Source: a virus. Taken from it: 64,000 nt of DNA. This document shows positions 2,857 to 22,819 of the stretch, in pieces (within the stretch, counting starts at the first letter, position 1; each line of letters starts with the position of its first letter). The DNA lies in IMG/VR virus record IMGVR_UViG_3300047548_001261, positions 17,896-81,895 of that record; one strand, given 5' to 3'. The position numbers were made by a program, and so were the translations under genes. The notes under the pieces are model-generated. The model had not been told where the DNA came from. It worked only from the letters and a program-made list of their open reading frames with translations, and did not search any database.

Positions 2857-5800
2857 ATGGCCAACGAAGCACAAATAGATTTAGCCGTCGACGTAAATGT
2901 CCAGATAAAAGAACTGAAACTGGACACAGAGAAGCTAACCAGCAAAATCAAAGCCGCAGTCGGTAGTTTAAAAGATATCCCGATAAGCCCTAAGCTGGCT
3001 ACAGATTTCAAAGAGTTGGATAAAGACGCCGCGAACCTTAGTAAAAAAGTCCAGGATGCGTTTGCGAAAATATCTAAACAAACCCCAGTCGCCCTTAACC
3101 TTGCGGAAAAACTTCGGAAAGAATTTCTATCCGGCGCAAATGCGGTGGACAAAGACGGTAATATTATCGGTAAGCAGCTACGAAGATTCATGTTGCAACA
3201 GCTGGAGTCGGTGCACGCATACGCGAATCTAGATAAGAAAAAGACATTGTGGGGGCAATTTGTCGATATAGAGGGGCAAAACATAGCTACTGCTAAGAAG
3301 ATGCTGACGGACATGTCTACCAAGATGTCTGCGGAGGCGTCTAAGGTTACTGTCGCCCAGACACAAATGGCGCGGAGCCTGAATCAAGCTAGCGAATCAC
3401 TAAAGCTGGGTATCGGTGCCGCAACAAACGGCATTTCTTCACAAGTATCCAAAACCATTTCCGATGTTAACTCGTTGGCGGAGGCTTTCAAATTCCTTGG
3501 GTTAAAGAATAAAGACAGGCAACTCCTCCTCGACCCTACGCCAACAGCGGAAAACTATGGTCGGTTGGTAAAAGTCCTGGAAGCGGCCAGAGAAAGGTAC
3601 TTCATTCTTGCTGCACAAGTCCATAACAATAAGAAGGCAGAAGAAGAGTTGGGGGTGTCCTCCGAGCAGGTTGCTGTTCACTTGGCAAAGGTTCGGGACG
3701 AGATCGACCGACAGCTCCCCAAGTACCGTGCCTTGGCGGAGGAGCAGGCACGGAAGGTAAAGTTGGACAAGGAGTTAGCGAACCAACAAGCAAGGCTACA
3801 GAAAGCCTTGTCAACAGTTACCGACTCCGGCACCAAGCCTTTGCGAGACCAGATCGAAGCCTATAACGAACTTCTCAGGATTCAAAGGGCGATCCGGGCA
3901 AACTCCGGCACCGACCTGGGGGTTAAATCTACCAGGGACACTCTTGCCCAGCTGAAACTTCAACTCAAGGCTACCGAGCAGATCGCCACCGCACAATCCT
4001 TAGTGGATAGAAGTGCCGACCTTGGGACTAGGGAACAAGCCGCTGCCAGAAGTAAACTCAACAACTTGTTGATCCAGTACAAGGACTTGTTGGCTGGGGA
4101 CACTTCTGCGGAAGTCTCCGCGAGTAAGCAGGCTTTAGCAAGACTTGAAGAAAGATTGGCCAAGGAAAAGCAAATCGCGGCTGCGGAAGAACGTTTGGTT
4201 CAACTCACCGCCGCTAGAGCGAAAAGCAGCCTGTCAGACACCCAAACCCTCTTGCGGCTGAAGAAGGAAGAGTTCGACGTCACCCTTGCCTTGGAGAAAG
4301 CAAAAGGGCTTGGTAGGGACGGCTCCGCACAGGTTCTTAGAGAAGTCGAAGCGCTCAAGCAAAGACTGGCTACTGAGGAAAAAGAACTATCCACCCTGAC
4401 CAAGCTGAAAGAAGCCAACAAAGAGCTTTACTTTAGGAGGAGCGCTACCGCCCCTTCAGCCTTAAATACCCAAAGGCTTGGGTCGGGTGCTCCAGCGCAG
4501 GCAATGGGCGCACAGGAGTTTGCCAAGCTGAAATCATCTGTAGAAGCGTATTCTAAGGCAATTCAGCAAGCCCAGGACGGCGTGGCTCAGATGTCAGCGC
4601 GCGGACTTCATTACGCCCTCGCGCTGACGGCTGCGTGGGAAAAGGACCGGGAGACTTTACTCGGAGTTATTGCCGTTCAAGAGCAACTTCAAAAAGCACA
4701 GGCCGCCACTCAACGAGTAGGCACTGCAAAAGGCAACGATGCCGCTAAGCTTATCGCCATGCGGGAAGAGGTTACTGCCCACCAAAGAATCGTTGATATT
4801 TTAGGTGTACAAGGTAGGGCACAGTCTGCCGTTGACCAAGCGACACTTGCCCACTCTCGTGCTAGGGTGTCTGCCTTACAAGGCGACATCGCAATGATTC
4901 GGCAACAAGTCAATGAGACAAACAGGCTGGGGGAGTCATACACCTCCCTGTCGTCTGCTTTCAGGTCGTTCTTGCGGTATGCCGTGGAGATGGCAGCCTT
5001 CTATCAAGGGTTGTCTGCCTTCCAGGCTGCGGCTAAATCAGTTGTGGACCTTGAAGACGCCCTAAAAGGTGTCCAAGCCGTCGCCCGCGCAACTGACACG
5101 GAAATGGAGAAGGTTGCTGCATCGGTAAAACGTGTCGCCATTGATACCGAGTTCTCGACCAACGACATAGCCGGTGCGGCCCAAACCTTATCCCAGGCGG
5201 GTGTTGGTATCGGCGAGATCGGGGAAGCCTTAGATGCAACCAGCTTGGCTGCATCTGCTACTGCGACATCGCTAGCAGTCACAGCGGACGTCTTGACAAC
5301 GATGCACAACGTCTTTAAAGACATGAGCTTCACAGAGATCGCTGATCAGATGACGTCAACGATCAACTTGTCAAAACTGACGGGGGCAGAGCTAAGCACG
5401 ATCCTGAGCAGGGCTGTGGAGGTCTCAGATTCATTCCACATCATTCCGGCACAGATGAACGCAGCCTTTGCTGTGCTGAGAAACGCAGGTATCAAGGCAA
5501 GTACGATCTCCACAGGGTATAGGGAATCCTTGCTGGAACTGTTCGCGCCTGACGCCAAGACACTTAGCTTCCTTGAGAAGAGGTATGCAGAGCTTGGGCA
5601 AACCTTATCGCAAGGAGCAATCGCGGAGTTGTTCCAAGGGTTTGCAAACTCCGCTGACCCTATTAGCGCAGTTACAGCAGAGTTGGATAAGCTTGGGTTC
5701 GCCACATCCGCCTCATCAGACTTTGCTCGTGTCTACAGTGTTCGGGCAAAGAACGTCCTGGACGTTTTAGTTAAGCAACGTGGTGAGTACGTAAATTTAA

Positions 5801-17394: not shown

Positions 17395-19268
17395 ATCGGT
17401 CTTGGACGCATAAGAATATTGCGAGGAGTATTCAGTTTAGTTCGAAAGGGGTCCTTCTTTGGCCCACAAGTGACGACGCACCGAACGGGTGGGGAGAACC
17501 TTTTGATACGATTACTGGTACGATAGGGGGGCCGAACCCAAACGTCTTACTGACATACACAGGGCCTACGGTAGGTATTAAACGAGGAGTCAAAAGGTCG
17601 CAGGCTGGTAACTGTTACTGGCGCGGCCCGCAAGGCAGAGTTATCTCTTGGCAAGGCCCTTGGGGCTTTCAAGTCGAATCCCCTGCACACTACTTCGGTA
17701 CACCGTCGTACTCGTCCTCGTACGAAATAGCTCTGGCTGCAAGGGCTGGCGCTGCTCTATCCTCCATCGGGTACACTCAGACTACATCTTATATCCCGAT
17801 AAACCCTTCTAACCCAACAGGCCCAGGTACATGGCTTATCCACGGGTCTCGGTTTTCCACAAAAATTTTCAAAACTGGTAAATTATTTGCCACCGCGCCA
17901 AATAAAATTCTAGGGGCTGCGGAATTAAATGGGGGGATTATAGCCATCTTAGTCGACCAGACGATCCGGTATAAAAAAGGTCCGGCGGATTGGGTAACTA
18001 TAGGGACTTTAACAGACCCAACTGTCACCGATCCGGCTAAAACACTTTTGCCCTACTTAGGTATATTCTCCTTTGATGCCGACGGGTTGCACGCTATCGC
18101 TATCCGATCTGTCCTTTGCCGGGACAACCTTAACCCGAATTACGCAACGAACCACATAGAGAAAGTCCTGACTAGGGTGTCGGTGTCCCTTGATGCAAAT
18201 GGAAACCTAAGCACTTCCGTTTCACACACTGCCACAGGGGCTTTAGCGCTTATATCGACATTTCACTCGGTCAGTACTTATACCCCACCACCGCCCCCGT
18301 ATACAGACGGTGGATCAGGGAGTTATTCAGACACAACAACGTACTCGTCAGAGGGCGAAACTGTTGTTGCAGCAGGATTTTACGGCAATACAGAGGTCGT
18401 CTTGTCGGCTAAGGCTCACGAAACTTCCCAAATATGGTCCACCTCATCTTCTGGGTACCGTTATGGGGATGGAGGGGAGAACGGGGAAGGGTTATTATCG
18501 CACTCATACACTGAATCGGGGAGTAATAAAGTCGGATTGTATAACGGCGAGGACTTATTGGTTGATTTGTTTGTCAGCACTAAAACTACGTCTTCTTCTA
18601 GCAGTGAGCAATCACATTGGGGTGAGCGTAGGGGCAGCGATTCTGCGTCTGGTGGTTCAACGTCTTCAACTACTTCTTCTACAGAGTCATCTTCTTTACT
18701 ATTCGCAGATGTTTCTGTAAGTCTTCCGGAACTCTGTCTTGTTAAGGAAGTTTCGTACTCCTCGTCAGAAAATTCAGGCTCCTTCGAGGTCTCCGTCGTG
18801 GTTAATACCACCGAAAGTACCTCTTCCTCCACAGCGTCTCATACAAATTCCGTCATTAACCCTAATGTATCCTTCCCTGTAGATCAGAGAGGGCCTATCA
18901 CAACAACAAGTACTGGGCATCTCGAAACCCTTGCAAACATCGGGTTCAATTCAGCAGGTAACTATGAAACCACTAACACGAATAGAGAATACAATGTCGT
19001 AGGGGCCAATCACTTTAGGAGTTACCACCCAACGGCGGGGTATGTAGATATATTTCCCGTCTGTTACGGGGTTGTTGACCCCGTTTCCGGGTTTTGGGCT
19101 ACTGTTCACTACCTGTATACAGTGAATTCCGGAACTGCAGACCTTAGTGTTGTAGAGACGACGACTGCGCAACTACCGAATGGGTTAACCCCAGAAAGTT
19201 TTCTGGGGTTAACTGGAGACAACCAAGCACTTGGCAATCTTCCTAGCAAGGGGGTTTACTTACTTTAA
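17391..19268 (+). CDS. Putative tail / receptor-binding protein, Ser/Thr-rich C-terminal half
   Basis: 625 aa, last gene of the + strand tail operon. Confidence 0.6.
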   Translation: MNRSWTHKNIARSIQFSSKGVLLWPTSDDAPNGWGEPFDTITGTIGGPNPNVLLTYTGPTVGIKRGVKRSQAGNCYWRGPQGRVISWQGPWGFQVESPAHYFGTPSYSSSYEIALAARAGAALSSIGYTQTTSYIPINPSNPTGPGTWLIHGSRFSTKIFKTGKLFATAPNKILGAAELNGGIIAILVDQTIRYKKGPADWVTIGTLTDPTVTDPAKTLLPYLGIFSFDADGLHAIAIRSVLCRDNLNPNYATNHIEKVLTRVSVSLDANGNLSTSVSHTATGALALISTFHSVSTYTPPPPPYTDGGSGSYSDTTTYSSEGETVVAAGFYGNTEVVLSAKAHETSQIWSTSSSGYRYGDGGENGEGLLSHSYTESGSNKVGLYNGEDLLVDLFVSTKTTSSSSSEQSHWGERRGSDSASGGSTSSTTSSTESSSLLFADVSVSLPELCLVKEVSYSSSENSGSFEVSVVVNTTESTSSSTASHTNSVINPNVSFPVDQRGPITTTSTGHLETLANIGFNSAGNYETTNTNREYNVVGANHFRSYHPTAGYVDIFPVCYGVVDPVSGFWATVHYLYTVNSGTADLSVVETTTAQLPNGLTPESFLGLTGDNQALGNLPSKGVYLL

Positions 19269-19353
19269 GTTCCAGCGGAGCCGCGTCCGCTGGGTTGGTC
19301 GTGTTTCTGGAAGTCCAGTTCAGAGCGCACCGACCCTTAACGTGGCGTTATAC
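19269..19353 (+). other. attC site 1 (R'' missing)
   Basis: L'' GTTCCAGC at 19269 ... L' CCTTAAC-gtggc-R' GTTATAC (19347-19353). Confidence 0.7.
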
Positions 19354-19573
19354 AGCAATTTCCAGCGTCGCATTCCAAAAGTCCCGCCCCAAAGGCGCAA
19401 TCATGGCAATGCGGCTCTCCATCGTCATTAAAAATTCCGTCTTCCTCGCAATTTCCAGTTGGCTCGTCACACTTACAACAAAGTTGCCGCGTTCCAGGAT
19501 AATGCGTGGCATTCCATCGCTCATGGCTGCCCTGATCCATAGCGTGTCTTTTTCCACCAGGCCATTCGTTCAT
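19337..19573 (-). CDS. Cassette 1: Cys-rich hypothetical protein (putative Zn finger)
   Basis: MNEWPGGKRHAMDQG...CCKC...CHDC; stop lies inside the attC1 L' box. Confidence 0.7.
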   Translation of the reverse strand: MNEWPGGKRHAMDQGSHERWNATHYPGTRQLCCKCDEPTGNCEEDGIFNDDGEPHCHDCAFGAGLLECDAGNCCITPR

Positions 19574-19586
19574 TTTTTGTTCCAGT

Positions 19587-19683
19587 GCATAACTCTTAGT
19601 TCAAGCGGACAATCCGCCATTTAACGCATTTGCGTGGTTAAATTTCAGTGTGTGGCGGCTTGCCACTTAACACGGCGTTATGC
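19587..19683 (+). other. attC site 2
   Basis: GCATAAC-tctta-GTTCAAGC...ACTTAAC-acggc-GTTATGC, 97 bp. Confidence 0.9.
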
Positions 19684-19860
19684 ACCATATCCGCGTTCAA
19701 ATACTTCATATCCAAAATTCTTGCCAAATGGATTATCTTCAGCGCATTCTTTAGCCAATTCAGCCGTCTCGAATTTAGCTATTTCATCGCCGTCTTTATC
19801 CATTAGCGGTGTGTACCCGCCACTTTGTGTTGTTAGCATTACGAAAAAATCGCCTTCCAT
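19678..19860 (-). CDS. Cassette 2: small hypothetical protein
   Basis: GGAG RBS; MEGDFFVMLTTQSGG...; TAA stop is the reverse complement of TTA in R'. Confidence 0.75.
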   Translation of the reverse strand: MEGDFFVMLTTQSGGYTPLMDKDGDEIAKFETAELAKECAEDNPFGKNFGYEVFERGYGA

Positions 19861-19878
19861 TTTTTATCTCCAGTTGAC

Positions 19879-19962
19879 GTATATCCCATCATTCAAGCCG
19901 ACGCTCTAAGCATCAGCTCATTGTTTAGAATCTATCCCGCGAGGCTTAATCTTGCGTTATAC
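19879..19962 (+). other. attC site 3 (degenerate R'')
   Basis: GTATATC-ccatc-ATTCAAGC...GCTTAAT-cttgc-GTTATAC. Confidence 0.8.
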
Positions 19963-20241
19963 GCACTGGGTTTCGTCGATAGCGTAAACACTCACAGGTT
20001 TTTCTCCAAAATGCGGATGTGTGATCCGCTTTTGTGGCGGATACCCTGCCCACTTTCTGCGTATCGTTTTTGACTCATCACCACGCTTCGGGTACCCTAA
20101 TTTTATGTGGATTTCGTCGTATTCAGGCCCACGCAAGCGGCGTTCCCAATAGTCGTTTGTCGCGCGATATTCCTCTGTCTTTTCGCCTTTGGCTATCGCG
20201 TGCCAATATTCAGCCTTTAGATGCAACGTTAAAATACGCAT
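19957..20241 (-). CDS. Cassette 3: ASCH/PUA-like domain protein
   Basis: LTLHLKAEYWHAIAKGEKTEEYR (GxKxxExR ASCH motif); ATG lies inside R'' of attC4 and TAA inside R' of attC3. Confidence 0.8.
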   Translation of the reverse strand: MRILTLHLKAEYWHAIAKGEKTEEYRATNDYWERRLRGPEYDEIHIKLGYPKRGDESKTIRRKWAGYPPQKRITHPHFGEKPVSVYAIDETQCV

Positions 20242-20337
20242 AACTCATAGCTCCAAGCGACGCAGTGCCGCGCCACGGTATTTTATTAAATTTAAGATAA
20301 GTGGCGCGGCACTGCGCTCCTGAGCATGGTGTTACGC
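20238..20337 (+). other. attC site 4
   Basis: GCATAAC-tcata-GCTCCAAG...long stem CGCAGTGCCGCGCCAC / GTGGCGCGGCACTGCG...CCTGAGC-atggt-GTTACGC. Confidence 0.88.
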
Positions 20338-20627
20338 CCTTTTAAAATATGACTCAAATTCCGCTCGCCATGTATCCATGTATCCCTGTATTGCTCATAT
20401 AGCCCTAGCATCCAGTAAATTACATAAGCTTGCTCTTCTTCCGCTTTCTTTGGTATGTCGTGACCTAATTCACGCAAATTGCGCGATAGCTGTCCGCACC
20501 AAAAATTAGGGCGGCCTAGGATAAATCTTGTTTCGTTATTTAGTTCAATTGTTACTTTTTGGCACAACAATCCGGTCAACTCATGCCCACCGACCTGTGG
20601 CGGTTGTGTAGTTTTGGTTTGGTTCAT
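20292..20627 (-). CDS. Cassette 4: hypothetical protein
   Basis: Core RFILGRPNFWCGQL...AEEEQAYVIYWML; starts inside attC5 and ends inside attC4. Confidence 0.7.
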   Translation of the reverse strand: MNQTKTTQPPQVGGHELTGLLCQKVTIELNNETRFILGRPNFWCGQLSRNLRELGHDIPKKAEEEQAYVIYWMLGLYEQYRDTWIHGERNLSHILKGRNTMLRSAVPRHLS

Positions 20628-20684
20628 AGTTCATCGCTCCGTTAAGGTTTCGTGTCCGGCTGGCTGGTTAGCTTTGCGTTAGGT
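20562..20684 (+). other. attC site 5
   Basis: GCACAAC-aatcc-GGTCAACT...GGTTAGC-tttgc-GTTAGGT, 123 bp. Confidence 0.75.
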
Positions 20685-21586
20685 ATACTCCGCAAAATAT
20701 GCGCTATTACATCCACAGTCCAGCCATTTCCTAGCATTCGTTTAGCCTGATTATCAGAGACAGAATCAGTGTACCCCTCTGGCACGGTTTGGAGTCTTTC
20801 GCACTCTCTGCGGGTATAGTGCCTGTACGGCAACCTTCTACCAAATGCGTCAGGATGTCTGCCTATCGGCATTGAAGTAAGTACATTATCTTTTGCCACT
20901 GTCGTTAAACAATTCGATTTATTCCTGTTACTTTCGCGCACCTCTAGGCATTGTGTTATCGGGATAGATTTATTGCAATCATCCCTAACTCCTCTTTCGT
21001 TTAATCGTCGCCCCAGAATAGTCGCTTTGTTTAGATACCTTCCCCGTATCGCGGCCGGTGAAATAACCTCAATATCATCCAAAATATCAACTAGGTTTAT
21101 GTTTTTATTCTCCGGCCGCTCGATATTTGGTATGTTTGTCCAATATAGCCTTACTCTGTTCTGTGCGGAAAGCAGCGAAGAATTTATCTCAATGGGCAAA
21201 ACCCCAAGTTTGTCACTTATTACATCTTGCCACTCCTTTTTCATTCCGACGTTTTCAAGTAGGAAATATTTTGGCTTGCATTCTTTCATCAGCCTAACAA
21301 ATTCAAAGAATAACTTACTACGCGGGTCTTCAAAATTAAGTTGCAGCCCGCTAGATGAGAACCCTTGGCACGGTGACCCTCCTATCAGCAAATCAATCTG
21401 TGGTAAGTCTGCCGCTACGACATTGACCACATTTCCAATCCTGATAATTTCTGGATAATTTGACTCTGATACCTTGATAGCGTGTTTATCTATTTCGCTG
21501 GAATAATAGGCTTTAACTGGTATTCCTGCGCGCTCCAAAGCTATACGGCCACAGGACATTCCGTCAAAAAGCGATAGTACGTTCAT
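20642..21586 (-). CDS. Cassette 5: DNA (cytosine-5)-methyltransferase
   Basis: Motifs I (SLFDGMSCG), IV (GSPCQGFS), VI (ENV), VIII (QNRVRLYW), IX (RECERLQTVP), X (LGNGW). Confidence 0.93.
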   Translation of the reverse strand: MNVLSLFDGMSCGRIALERAGIPVKAYYSSEIDKHAIKVSESNYPEIIRIGNVVNVVAADLPQIDLLIGGSPCQGFSSSGLQLNFEDPRSKLFFEFVRLMKECKPKYFLLENVGMKKEWQDVISDKLGVLPIEINSSLLSAQNRVRLYWTNIPNIERPENKNINLVDILDDIEVISPAAIRGRYLNKATILGRRLNERGVRDDCNKSIPITQCLEVRESNRNKSNCLTTVAKDNVLTSMPIGRHPDAFGRRLPYRHYTRRECERLQTVPEGYTDSVSDNQAKRMLGNGWTVDVIAHILRSIPNAKLTSQPDTKP

Positions 21587-21618
21587 CCAATTTACCTATT
21601 CGTTGTAAGTAAAAACCA

Positions 21619-21682
21619 GCCAGACCCTGCGCTCCAGAGCGACGGCGGAAAAGCACCGCCGCGCCTGAACTATGCGTTGGGC
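21619..21682 (+). other. attC site 6 (degenerate R'')
   Basis: GCCAGAC-cctgc-GCTCCAGA...CGGCGG/CCGCCG stem...CCTGAAC-tatgc-GTTGGGC, 64 bp. Confidence 0.75.
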
Positions 21683-21683
21683 T

Positions 21684-21908
21684 TCAGCCTATATCGTCTA
21701 AGTAATCCTTGAGTGCAACATAAGCTCGCGCAAATGCCTCTTTTCTTGATGGTGAATTGTTAATTTTTATCTCTGCATCGCCCCATTTGCCAGGTTCTTT
21801 GCCTCTTCGGTCATAGACAAAAATATTCCAGTCTGTAATCCCGTTGTGACCAATTTCCAGTGCCAGCATTGATTGCTGGGCATATAAATCTAAAAAATCT
21901 TCTTCCAT
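21684..21908 (-). CDS. Cassette 6: hypothetical protein
   Basis: GAGG RBS; 74 aa filling the space between attC6 and attC7. Confidence 0.75.
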   Translation of the reverse strand: MEEDFLDLYAQQSMLALEIGHNGITDWNIFVYDRRGKEPGKWGDAEIKINNSPSRKEAFARAYVALKDYLDDIG

Positions 21909-21930
21909 ACAAGCCTCTTAATTATCTATA

Positions 21931-22052
21931 GCCCAACAAGTCAGTCAAGCTGGACGGTGCGCCTGTGGCGCGGGTTAAAGTCAGTGTTTCGGTAAGGGCC
22001 AGTGCGCTAATCAGGTTATTCCAGCGCACCGCCCCTTACCTCTGCGTTATGC
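21931..22052 (+). other. attC site 7
   Basis: GCCCAAC-aagtc-AGTCAAGC...CGGTGCGC/GCGCACCG...CCTTACC-tctgc-GTTATGC, 122 bp. Confidence 0.88.
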
Positions 22053-22054
22053 AC

Positions 22055-22228
22055 TTACATGTCCAGCAAGCTGCGCACAACATCAAGCAACGTATCAGCA
22101 ATCTTACCGTCTTTGCCGTAGTCGGCGGCAAGGCGGCGAAGGCGCTTATAGCAAGCTTCGTCAACTGCGTTGTTATCGTCTCTATCTTTCAGCAATTCTT
22201 CAATCAATTCTTCGTCTGTCATGTGCAT
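22055..22228 (-). CDS. Cassette 7: small hypothetical protein
   Basis: MHMTDEELIEELLKDRDD...; first ATG is inside R'' of attC8. Confidence 0.65.
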   Translation of the reverse strand: MHMTDEELIEELLKDRDDNNAVDEACYKRLRRLAADYGKDGKIADTLLDVVRSLLDM

Positions 22229-22321
22229 AACTCTTAGTTCAATCGGACAAGCCGCCATTTAACGCATTTGCGTGGTTAAATTTCAGTGTGTGGCGGCTTG
22301 CCGCTTAACACGGCGTTGGGC
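22225..22321 (+). other. attC site 8 (near-identical to attC2)
   Basis: GCATAAC-tctta-GTTCAATC...GCTTAAC-acggc-GTTGGGC, 97 bp. Confidence 0.9.
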
Positions 22322-22322
22322 C

Positions 22323-22622
22323 CTACCAGCGGCGGATATTCGCAAAATCCCAAAATTGTCGGCGACCCTCAGCATCGGTTGCGTCGCTCCATAGCAAAGC
22401 TATCCGCTGGCCCGTCATTGCCTCGACAACACCGTTAATTAGCCCGAGAGCTCCAACGGCGTATCCGCCGGTTACGCCTAGCTCATCAACCTGCACCGTC
22501 GGGTGATCTGCCAGCGCATGATTACACGGCACGCGGTTGCACATCAGCGCATGAATTGCGTTTCTGTCGTCGTTGTACGCGCCATTTAGTGTGTCGATGG
22601 CTTTTTGTATTTGCGTTGCCAT
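22323..22622 (-). CDS. Cassette 8: hypothetical protein
   Basis: GAGG RBS; NRVPCNHALADHPTVQV...VGALGLING. Confidence 0.75.
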   Translation of the reverse strand: MATQIQKAIDTLNGAYNDDRNAIHALMCNRVPCNHALADHPTVQVDELGVTGGYAVGALGLINGVVEAMTGQRIALLWSDATDAEGRRQFWDFANIRRW

Positions 22623-22637
22623 ATTGGCCTCAATTTT

Positions 22638-22685
22638 GCCTAACGTTACATTCGAGCGGACGCGTGGTAAGCGCCGCTCATTTAC
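22638..22685 (+). other. attC site 9 (R' missing)
   Basis: GCCTAAC-gttac-ATTCGAGC-ggacgcg...gcgcc-GCTCATT, then an HNH remnant with no correctly spaced GTTRRRY. Confidence 0.65.
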
Positions 22686-22819
22686 CCAGCCCCGTTCGCC
22701 TGCACCTGTGAATTCAGGTTAAGGGTGCCTGCTAATCTTCCAGTGAGCTTATTCGTGCCCTGGTTAGCCTTCCAAGTGAACTCGCCGGTTTCCTGCTCGT
22801 AATTTACTAAATCTTTCAT
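22682..22819 (-). pseudogene. N-terminal remnant of an HNH endonuclease
   Basis: MKDLVNYEQETGEFTWK...GRLAG resembles the N-terminus of 57125-57604 (LKELLHYDEETGIFTWK...GQIAG); stops after 45 aa. Confidence 0.65.

Follow-up and report, generated by a model that had tools for sequence, protein, structure and literature searches.

attC sites overlapping the translation signals of inverted cassettes in an integrase-less phage array

Introduction

Can a DNA recombination site also provide the start, the ribosome-binding site and the stop of the genes lying next to it? The question is raised by an 81,895-bp freshwater phage genome, complete with direct terminal repeats, in which eight small genes, all on the minus strand, are tightly packed among integron-type attC hairpins whose top strand is the plus strand. 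The original prediction, made on a 64-kb stretch of this genome (hereafter the window), was that the attC sites double as translation signals and that reshuffling of the cassettes would change protein termini and translational coupling. Expression of integron cassettes is generally held to require the promoter of the integron platform, with roughly one cassette in five also relying on upstream translation signals. In resistance cassettes, attC overlaps the stop codon in the majority of cases (PMC11511950); ORF-11 and ORF-18 in attI1, and cassettes without their own translation-initiation region, have also been described (Hanau-Bercot et al.; reviewed in PMC8876359).

Methods

A script was used to recalculate the coordinates of all boxes and codons, and all starts were assigned from homologues and Shine-Dalgarno spacing. 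Sites were detected with a covariance model of attC (R1) built from 10 sites, attC g being excluded from the training. R1 superseded two earlier attC scanners (MFE folding and arm alignment), which were too strict or too unspecific, and a regular expression for the L''-spacer-R'' half, which gave 11 matches versus about 5 by chance. The features of attC (extrahelical bases in L'', unpaired R-L spacer) were defined as in Nivina et al. 2016 (PMC5027507), after which polarity was also called, from the position of the extrahelical bases and the stability of the strands. The crossover was placed at G|TT in R', a cassette running from the TT of the previous R' to the G of its own R'. The survey of other viruses comprised 16 model-detected attC; they come from 8 different viral contigs, two further records being duplicates. 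It is not independent of the attC model since R1 was trained on sites of the same type. No RNA run containing this stretch was found; sequencing run X7, labelled as possible RNA, is probably DNA and covers short pieces of the stretch only.

Results

An integrase-less attC array with inverted genes

The array contains six intact attC (b, c, d, f, g and h) within 2.7 kb and three partial or decayed sites (a, e and i) (Table 1). The intact sites have both core boxes of an attC as inverted copies (R'' RYYYAAC, R' GTTRRRY), and a, e and i have them in part, with an R''/R' complementarity of 7/7 for b, 6/7 for c and d and 5/7 for f, g and h; GTT begins every R' box and several boxes have a T at the second R position (GTTATGC). 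The L'' arm exhibited two to three extra (extrahelical) bases in all six intact sites, making the L''/L' stem imperfect, and the R-L spacers, of 5-6 nt, are non-complementary. Folding of the bottom strand was equal to or better than that of the top strand in five of the six intact sites. At the level of sequence, the extra bases of the L'' arm confirmed the plus strand as the attC top strand, the complementarity of R''(k) with R'(k-1) in cassettes g and h being compatible with either polarity. Over both strands of the 64 kb, the matches of R1 were confined to the array and included the untrained attC g.

In a canonical cassette the gene precedes its attC and is encoded by the top strand of that site; none of the eight ORFs shows this layout. 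The integron integrase profile TIGR02249 had no match anywhere in the complete 81,895-bp genome, so that the array, with at least two attC close together and intI absent nearby, corresponds to a CALIN. Within the window, Rfam gave zero matches at gathering thresholds and no tRNA gene was found.

Table 1 Sites and genes of the array, in order along the window. Boxes are written on the plus strand; bits are scores of the attC model.
Feature	Position	Strand	Length	R''	L''	R'	Bits	Remarks
Site a	19347..19353 (R' box)	+				GTTATAC		Left-most; attC-like in L'-R' half only; missed by attC model
ORF1	19337..19573	-	78 aa					Cys-rich, no family; ATG 13 nt from R''(b)
attC b	19587..19683	+	97 nt	GCATAAC	GTTCAAGCGGAC	GTTATGC	75	
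ORF2	19678..19860	-	60 aa					
attC c	19879..19962	+	84 nt	GTATATC		GTTATAC	68	
ORF3	19957..20241	-	94 aa					ASCH-domain protein
attC d	20238..20337	+	100 nt	GCATAAC	GCTCC			Very stable hairpin
ORF4	20292..20627	-	111 aa					Unnamed phage family
Tandem duplication	20369..20384	-	8 bp x2					GATACATG x2 (minus-strand reading); shifts ORF4 frame
Site e ('attC5')	20624..20684	+				GTTAGGT (20678-20684)		Decayed; clear R', stem absent
ORF5	20642..21586	-	314 aa					C5 cytosine DNA methyltransferase; Pfam domain ends at residue 301
attC f	21619..21682	+	64 nt	GCCAGAC		GTTGGGC	46	
ORF6	21684..21908	-	74 aa					Own TGA 1 nt outside R'(f); own GAGG Shine-Dalgarno
attC g	21931..22052	+	122 nt	GCCCAAC		GTTATGC	23.6	Untrained
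ORF7	22055..22222	-	55 aa					Length from conserved M13; frame open to 22258 through attC h
attC h	22225..22321	+	97 nt	GCATAAC		GTTGGGC	72	
ORF8	22323..22622	-	99 aa					phrog_21281; own TAG 1 nt outside R'(h); own GAGG Shine-Dalgarno
Half-site i	22638..22661	+		GCCTAAC	ATTCGAGCGGAC			Matching R' arm absent; right edge of array

Stop codons within the R' boxes

We found that the TAA stops of ORF2 and ORF3 are, as predicted, the complement of the TTA of an R' box. The stop of ORF2 corresponds to TTA 19678-19680, which directly follows the G|TT crossover in R'(b) GTTATGC (19677-19683), and that of ORF3, the ASCH gene, to TTA 19957-19959 inside R'(c) GTTATAC (19956-19962). A stop inside a core box reading RYYYAAC on the mRNA is present in these two genes now and was present in ORF4 before its 8-bp duplication. 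ORF1 is out of frame with the TAA that R'(a) offers; it continues for 11 nt beyond the crossover and ends in the L'(a) box. Packing is non-random, all eight stops falling between -40 and +8 nt of a crossover. Agreement in frame was not beyond chance, neither for the box TAA in this array (3/5 ORFs, P=0.21), nor for the box when pooled with other phages (8/19, P=0.28), nor for the ATG of GTTATGC (5/10, P=0.21).

The array is probably an integrase-less row of integron-type cassettes in which the overlaps of signals follow from tight packing and from the sequences of the boxes. The spacer between gene and site is nearly gone, with the genes on the attC bottom strand, and stops and starts would overlap the sites because of this packing together with the sequences of the boxes. 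On the complementary strand R' (GTTA...) becomes ...TAAC, where an in-frame ORF lacking its own stop would end, and an out-of-frame ORF would run a few codons into the next site. The commonest R'' of the array, GCATAAC, has as complement GTTATGC, which contains an ATG. Ribosomes presumably use the sites as they are read here.

The start of the ASCH gene within attC d

R''(d) GCATAAC (20238-20244) contains the ATG of the ASCH gene, read in reverse from CAT 20239-20241, and L''(d) contains its GGAG, 9 nt upstream, read likewise from CTCC 20251-20254, in agreement with the prediction that this gene spans exactly R'' to R' with a GGAG from the reversed L'' box. These are the positions of a translation-initiation region inside a recombination site, with a predicted use by ribosomes. 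Positions 1-88 of the phrog_625 profile align with residues 1-89 of the protein, 334 phage records align to it from residue 1, and the annotated CDS of Salmonella phage AG11 begins at a Met aligned with M1; homologues outside any attC context have the same start methionine. As judged from these alignments, M1 is the native N-terminus of the family. In the packing model the R'' ATG would be this native start, and the L'' box would have become GGAGC.

As mRNA, attC d folded with -56.1 kcal/mol (z -7.1), the Shine-Dalgarno sequence and the AUG of the ASCH gene being paired, and the accessibility of this start site, 0.23, was the lowest among the eight ORFs. A static ribosome modelled on the ancestral ORF4 stop raised it from 0.23 to 0.44, and one modelled on the present ORF4 stop did not raise it. 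The model of a static terminating ribosome hints weakly at coupling, by which the attC d hairpin would make ASCH translation depend on ribosomes arriving from ORF4. Coupling through an mRNA hairpin, where one arm of the stem hides the start and ribosomes from upstream translate the other, is known for example from the operons of RNA phages. The ASCH start would be analogous, being in a stem with the other arm translated upstream, with the difference that here the stem doubles as a DNA recombination site.

In attC d the L'' box reads GCTCC (GGAGC as mRNA), in place of GTTC in its relatives b and h. The viral contig L044 has an ASCH gene of 88% identity, next to which GGAGC-TATAA-GTTATGC is preserved although the remainder of that site has decayed. 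The conserved GGAGC of these two ASCH cassettes could reflect selection for dual use rather than mere compaction. In that case, the R''-L'' half would have been shaped into a portable initiation region gated by the hairpin, and a cassette gene would be translated only once upstream ribosomes melt the 5' arm, with coupling all along the array. The stable fold of attC d and the low accessibility of the ASCH start are in line with such a selected dual use, as is the array itself, where promoter- and terminator-like sites were not above expectation.

ORF4, ORF5 and the decayed site e

Site e also bears on this point. The GGAG (complement of 20637-20640) and the ATG (20625-20627) of ORF4 do lie inside it, as predicted for 'attC5', but the site is decayed and stemless, with an RNA folding z of +0.7 and no arm pairing. 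Despite the loss of all pairing it retains GGAGC-GATGA-ACTATGA in the same register, and the ORF5 stop is 1 nt before the GGAG and 14 nt before the ATG of ORF4, both of which would suit dual use. Possible distal R''/L'' boxes were seen at 20562-20580; a long attC of 123 nt (20562-20684) was considered and rejected, its match to the model being marginal (19.5 bits, E about 0.05) and its stem absent.

Against selection for dual use, a Shine-Dalgarno sequence located outside the site serves five of the eight genes, among them ORF2 (GGAG, complement of 19869-19872, outside attC c), the boxes supply in-frame ATG and TAA at chance level, and the effect in the ribosome model is modest. We regard selected dual use as possible and somewhat doubtful.

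ORF4 and ORF5 both read into the next attC, as had been noted. ORF5 reads 12 codons past the R'(e) crossover (NAKLTSQPDTKP), a read-through that places these last codons and the stop inside the stemless site e; it is also, among the five ORFs reaching a box, the only one in which the crossover lies within an in-frame AAC. Nearly all of its homologues (n=119) end 3-6 residues after AHI[FL]xx[IM]. ORF4 reads 13 codons past the R'(d) crossover (RNTMLRSAVPRHLS), its C-terminal 27 residues being frameshifted and extending into attC d. Removal of one copy of the 8-bp repeat gave ...RDTWRAEFESYFKRA*, the same C-terminus as in the 92% homologue P0003, with the TAA in R'(d) as stop. The duplication is also in the Logan contig of the source sample (record 5), with zero differences. 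A peptide tail of ORF4 by design was rejected, the tail being the product of this frameshift.

Termini compared with families outside attC contexts

The ORF2 family ends 0-5 residues past the same conserved G-x-G, and no preference for a terminal A/V/T/I, the residues imposed by the stop-in-box frame, was seen among its members (18/98). ORF7 had been noted as able to start in R'' too; an in-frame ATG is indeed inside R''(h) (22226-22228), but conservation among homologues begins only at M13, whose ATG (22220-22222) is 2 nt away from R''. The Shine-Dalgarno sequence of ORF7 is likely AAGAG in the R''-L'' spacer of attC h, and its own TAA is 2 nt outside R'(g). The termini of the ASCH and ORF2 families are alike outside attC contexts and the conserved start of ORF7 is outside the site, which counts in part against the sites as modules that set protein ends. 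Homologues lack the C-terminal tails of ORF1 (3 residues) and ORF5 (12 residues), whose codons come from the neighbouring site.

Effect of reshuffling

Because the genes are inverted, the R''/L'' leader half and the TTA stop belong to the gene's own cassette; with the plus strand as top and the cassette counted from the TT of the previous R', the TTA giving TAA is its first 3 nt. Leader and stop being inside, most cassettes would be self-contained translation units, whose signals, as read from the sequence, would travel with them. Contrary to the original prediction, the start and ribosome-binding site of the ASCH gene and the stops of ORF2, ORF3 and ancestral ORF4 would not be altered by reshuffling. 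What stands is that stops, some Shine-Dalgarno sequences and one start, confirmed by homologues, lie physically within the sites, and that the short tails of ORF1 and ORF5, and only these, would change under a canonical G|TT crossover. Since the identity of the upstream ORF changes on reshuffling, any translational coupling would depend on context.

That the sites are expression modules through which reshuffling rewires termini, starts and ribosome-binding sites is unlikely. The tails of ORF1, ORF5 and present ORF4 do extend beyond the crossover, so that a different neighbour would alter them, and PNAxLT-type tails recur in other phages, TPNAELT (L004) and HPNAKLT (L049) repeating the PNAKLT of ORF5. 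On the other side are the position of starts, Shine-Dalgarno sequences and R' TAA stops inside the own cassette if plus is top, the match of the ASCH, ORF2 and ORF7 termini with family members elsewhere, and the frameshift origin of the ORF4 tail.

From the packing model one may tentatively go further. Phages might keep their own pool of 'backwards' integron cassettes that have turned the attC bottom strand to use as a portable 5' leader, with the Shine-Dalgarno sequence in L'' or the spacer, the start in or adjoining R'', and the stop formed by the first bases of the cassette. Such a self-contained unit would work at any position of an array on a phage transcript, its hairpin coupling translation to the upstream gene; we consider this conceivable rather than probable.

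Recurrence in other phages

The sites attC b and attC h are 97% identical and flank unrelated genes. A related phage from a different study (run X3) has the flanks and several attC in common with this phage and other DNA between them, the joints being at 19956, 19685 and 20682, at or adjoining R' boxes. No viral contig with relatives of the neighbouring SbcC-like gene was found, so that this collection provided no 'empty site' comparison. In the survey, all 16 sites were opposite in strand to the gene used for fetching the locus. The upstream ORF stopped within the R' box in 5 cases and just before it in 2, and read 25-76 nt into the site in 9; the ATG of the downstream ORF was within R'' in 4 cases, abutted it in 2 and was 15-32 nt away in 8. 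The same type of site bounds unrelated genes in these other contigs.

It is very improbable that the repeats are phage intergenic regulatory hairpins (terminators or RNA-processing sites) merely resembling attC, as the missing integrase and the location of coding-strand hairpins between genes might suggest, given the canonical box order, spacers and L''-arm bulges, the near-identical pair around unrelated genes, the exchanged cargo with joints at R', the same site type around unrelated genes elsewhere, and the absence of T-runs after the stems or of an excess of terminator-like sites.

Discussion

In this window the overlaps between attC and translation signals are real and mostly an expected by-product of packing and box sequence, and one of the 'tails' is a frameshift; the result is modest. 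Publications already describe the overlap of stop codons with attC, as the usual case, and the occurrence in phages of attC clusters without integrase (CALINs). A start codon and ribosome-binding site in the gene's own attC, in inverted phage cassettes, were not found in print.

The layout mirrors a feature known from integrons. As in canonical cassettes (R'' RYYYAAC with TAA), a box reading ...TAAC on the mRNA ends the gene with no 3' untranslated spacer. Unlike there, the genes are on the bottom strand and the stop box is the complement of the R' of the previous site instead of the gene's own R'', the three stop bases being the first bases of its own cassette. The attI1 module with ORF-11 and ORF-18 is likewise a recombination site with a Shine-Dalgarno sequence and an ATG, with a stop from positions 3-5 of the GTTRRRY core, and translational coupling has been described for it (PMC8876359); it serves only the first cassette, via a short leader peptide, whereas here L'' and R'' of the cargo gene's own attC contain its signals. 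An attC array in a phage, lacking an integrase and with a DNA methyltransferase as cargo, was reported in 2023 (PMC9892861), with cassettes oriented as in bacterial arrays and no report of starts or ribosome-binding sites inside the sites, whereas in our phage all eight genes are inverted. ORF5 and ORF4, joined by the decayed site e with stop and start 14 nt apart, look like a fused two-gene cassette of the kind produced by partial attC loss (PMC4670013), differing by their phage context, their bottom-strand position and a remnant which still holds the start signals of the downstream gene.

If inverted phage cassettes carry their own start, ribosome-binding site and stop, they would be expressible wherever they land on a phage transcript, which would help to explain how small accessory genes, the methyltransferase among them, are kept and exchanged by phages without integrase. 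For annotation, gene callers stretch such genes into the hairpins, as in homologues of ORF7 with their MLPGVALNDGLY... extensions; tails arising by read-through, for instance PNAKLT, derive from the site and are not functional domains. The closest homologues of ORF4 and ORF7 were P0002, P0003 and P0154-P0166.

Architecture and polarity of the array

The virus record is complete (81,895 bp with direct terminal repeats), the window being a part of it, and no integron integrase was found in the complete 81,895-bp genome. Structural genes occupy the + strand up to 19268 and essentially all genes lie on the - strand from 19337 onward. Between 19.3 and 22.7 kb we found eight small - strand ORFs (ORF1-ORF8), with repeats in the integron attC box order (R'', L'', L', R') between them, all boxes being located by script. 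The six intact sites all showed an inverted R''/R' core, unpaired spacers of 5-6 nt and an L''/L' stem with 2-3 extra bases in the + strand 5' arm.

attC-like sites of the phage array, from left to right
Site	Position in window	State
a		partial: L'-R' half only
b	19587-19683	intact
c	19879-19962	intact
d	20238-20337	intact
e		partial: R' clear, stem absent
f	21619-21682	intact
g	21931-22052	intact
h	22225-22321	intact
i		partial: R''-L'' half only

The covariance model R1, trained on five window sites and five sites from other viral contigs with site g left out, recovered site g and detected no further sites beyond the array on either strand of the 64-kb window. R''-like GCACAAC and L''-like GGTCAAC boxes were present at 20562-20580, within the N-terminal coding region of ORF4, and gave with R'(e), the R' box of site e, a marginal model match (19.5 bits); if they once formed one 123-nt site, the first ~20 codons of ORF4 would fall inside it.

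In attC sites the extrahelical bases lie beside L'', in the arm opposite the AAC triplet of the recombined strand (PMC5027507). By this published criterion, the structure of the sites suggests that the attC top strand is the + strand, the recombinogenic bottom strand being the - strand. In five of the six intact sites the bottom strand folded at least as well as the top; R''(g) and R''(h) are complementary to the preceding R', which is compatible with either polarity. [quoted passage not shown]

Promoter- and terminator-like sites in the array were not above expectation, and we infer that the array is the distal end of a long leftward transcription unit. The stop codon (TAA, 19266-19268) of the tail-fibre-like + strand gene is followed directly by GTT and by a GC-rich hairpin (CCAGCGGA...TCCGCTGG, 19266-19292), and this GTT was taken as the left boundary of the variable region because a related phage, from sequencing run X3, diverges from 19272 on. 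At the other end, a 45-aa ORF (22682-22819, - strand) abuts half-site i and weakly matches (E 2e-4) the N-terminal part of the HNH endonuclease phrog_99; the array may end on the right inside a truncated homing-endonuclease gene.

Stops and starts within the sites

The original prediction, that the attC sites double as translation signals, was correct in all its coordinates when these were recomputed by script. In R'(b) and R'(c), the complement of the TTA directly after the G|TT crossover gives the TAA stops of ORF2 and ORF3, respectively. The ASCH-domain gene (ORF3) starts with the ATG opposite the CAT of R''(d), with a GGAG 9 nt upstream in L''(d), and ORF4 and ORF5 run on for 13 and 12 codons once past the next site's crossover. 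ORF1, out of frame with the box TAA, ends within the L'(a) box; ORF6, ORF7 and ORF8 each have a stop of their own, 1-2 nt outside the box, and start codons lie between 4 nt inside R'' and 32 nt from it.

Five window ORFs reach the box without a stop of their own, and for three of them the frame fits, or once fitted, the TAA (P=0.21, chance rate 1/3). With other phages included, the count was 8/19 (P=0.28), and the ATG of GTTATGC was in frame with the downstream ORF in 5/10 cases (P=0.21). Frame coincidences with the box TAA or ATG are not special, and the regularity of the array is the near-absence of spacer. A 6-codon mini-ORF (MHWNKK; 19571-19593, - strand) starts from the ATG in R''(b), and its TGA overlaps the ORF1 start (ATGA), a layout typical of translational coupling that may be due to chance.

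Stops overlapping attC are the majority case in resistance cassettes (PMC11511950), in attI1 the core box supplies the stop of ORF-11 and the recombination site carries a Shine-Dalgarno sequence and ATG (PMC8876359), and phage CALINs with methyltransferase cargo are already published (PMC9892861). In the literature searched, we found no description of inverted phage cassettes with the start region of a gene in its own attC.

Comparison of gene ends with homologues

The gene ends were compared with those of homologues, the check proposed with the original prediction. Residues 1-89 of ASCH align to positions 1-88 of the phrog_625 profile, 334 phage records align from residue 1, and in Salmonella phage AG11 the annotated ASCH CDS begins at the aligned Met behind an ordinary leader and no attC; the ATG in R''(d) is therefore the family's native start, and the comparison indicates that attC d sits on an existing start and does not supply a new one. 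An 88% identical ASCH copy (contig L044) has kept GGAGC-TATAA-GTTATGC, the remainder of the site having decayed. The conserved core ends at AID(E/V), and the stop codon, like the final Val (GTA), is box-derived. For ORF2, 112 representatives align up to residue 59/60, the family ending 0-5 residues past the same G-x-G, and the box begins right after the conserved core.

The closest homologues of ORF4 end in ...FKRA or ...LKGKS. The window copy carries an 8-bp tandem duplication (GATACATG x2, - strand, 20369-20384) that shifts the frame; without one repeat copy, ORF4 would stop at the TAA in R'(d) and end ...RDTWRAEFESYFKRA*, as its 92% identical homologue P0003 does, so that the supposed attC-derived tail is a frameshift product. 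The duplication is also present in the Logan assembly of the source sample, which is not independent of the source. For the C5 methyltransferase ORF5, the Pfam domain ends at residue 301, and since nearly all of 119 homologues terminate 3-6 residues past AHI[FL]xx[IM], its NAKLTSQPDTKP is site-encoded read-through.

ORF7 does have an in-frame ATG in R'', but this adds only Met-His; conservation begins at M13 (MTD...), where 5 of 13 homologues start, 2 nt outside R''(h). An AAGAG in the R''-L'' spacer of attC h lies at a suitable distance for a candidate Shine-Dalgarno sequence. In contig L002 an attC-model match (4868-4995) overlaps a long N-terminal extension of an ORF4 homologue, and the ATG in its R'' box would give MHPLELNEET..., which agrees with the N-terminus of the family's short form; such genes are probably extended too far into the hairpin by gene callers.

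Consequences for reshuffling and coupling

With + as the top strand, a cassette would begin at the TT of the preceding R' and end at the G in its own R'. The TTA underlying a TAA stop would thus form the first three nucleotides of the cassette to which the gene belongs, and R'' and L'' would belong to the gene's own attC. The ASCH cassette (19957-20331, 375 nt) would consist entirely of ORF and attC, its Shine-Dalgarno sequence, start and stop travelling along. Neighbour-encoded parts are only the tails of ORF1 (3 residues), ORF5 (12 residues) and the present frameshifted ORF4. Reshuffling, predicted to alter protein termini and coupling, would then change these tails and the identity of the upstream ORF, but not starts, ribosome-binding sites or in-box stops, a reading that depends on the polarity suggested by site structure.

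As RNA, attC d has a predicted fold of -56.1 kcal/mol (z -7.1) in which the ASCH Shine-Dalgarno sequence and AUG pair with the arm holding the ancestral ORF4 stop. The modelled accessibility of the ASCH start, 0.23, was the lowest among the eight ORFs; in a static model it rose to 0.44 with a ribosome on the ancestral ORF4 stop and did not change with one on the present stop. It is plausible that this hairpin gates ASCH translation, which would couple it to ribosomes from the upstream gene. The ORF5 stop lies 1 nt before the GGAG of ORF4.

Recurrence in other phages

Loci were retrieved with ORF4, ASCH and ORF7 homologues, two further loci being duplicate records. Model R1 detected 16 sites in 8 distinct viral contigs, all opposite in strand to the gene used for retrieval. 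The upstream ORF stopped inside R' (5 sites), just before the box (2) or 25-76 nt into the site (9); the ATG of the downstream ORF was inside R'' (4), abutting it (2) or 15-32 nt away with its own leader (8). In contigs L045 and L050 and in AG11, members of these gene families have the same N-termini in the absence of attC sites. PNAKLT of ORF5 recurs in the tails TPNAELT (L004) and HPNAKLT (L049), such tails being the simple translation of CCTAAC-GCAAAG-CTAAC.

The X3 phage, from a wastewater metagenome of another study, matches the window in its tail-fibre end (19200-19271) and in the right flank (22236-22800). Compared over 19200-22800, it shares attC b, c and h and a part of g, with about 640-670 nt of different DNA between attC sites. 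The joints fall at 19685, at 20682 and at 19956, the last being the G of R'(c), and the differences suggest that cassettes turn over among close relatives. Similar rows, with 4-5 attC sites of this type and genes on the bottom strand in both, were also seen at L004:3053-5045 and L052:2921-3882, where several ORFs begin at the R'' box ATG (e.g. L052 site 3795-3882, L004 site 3053-3143).
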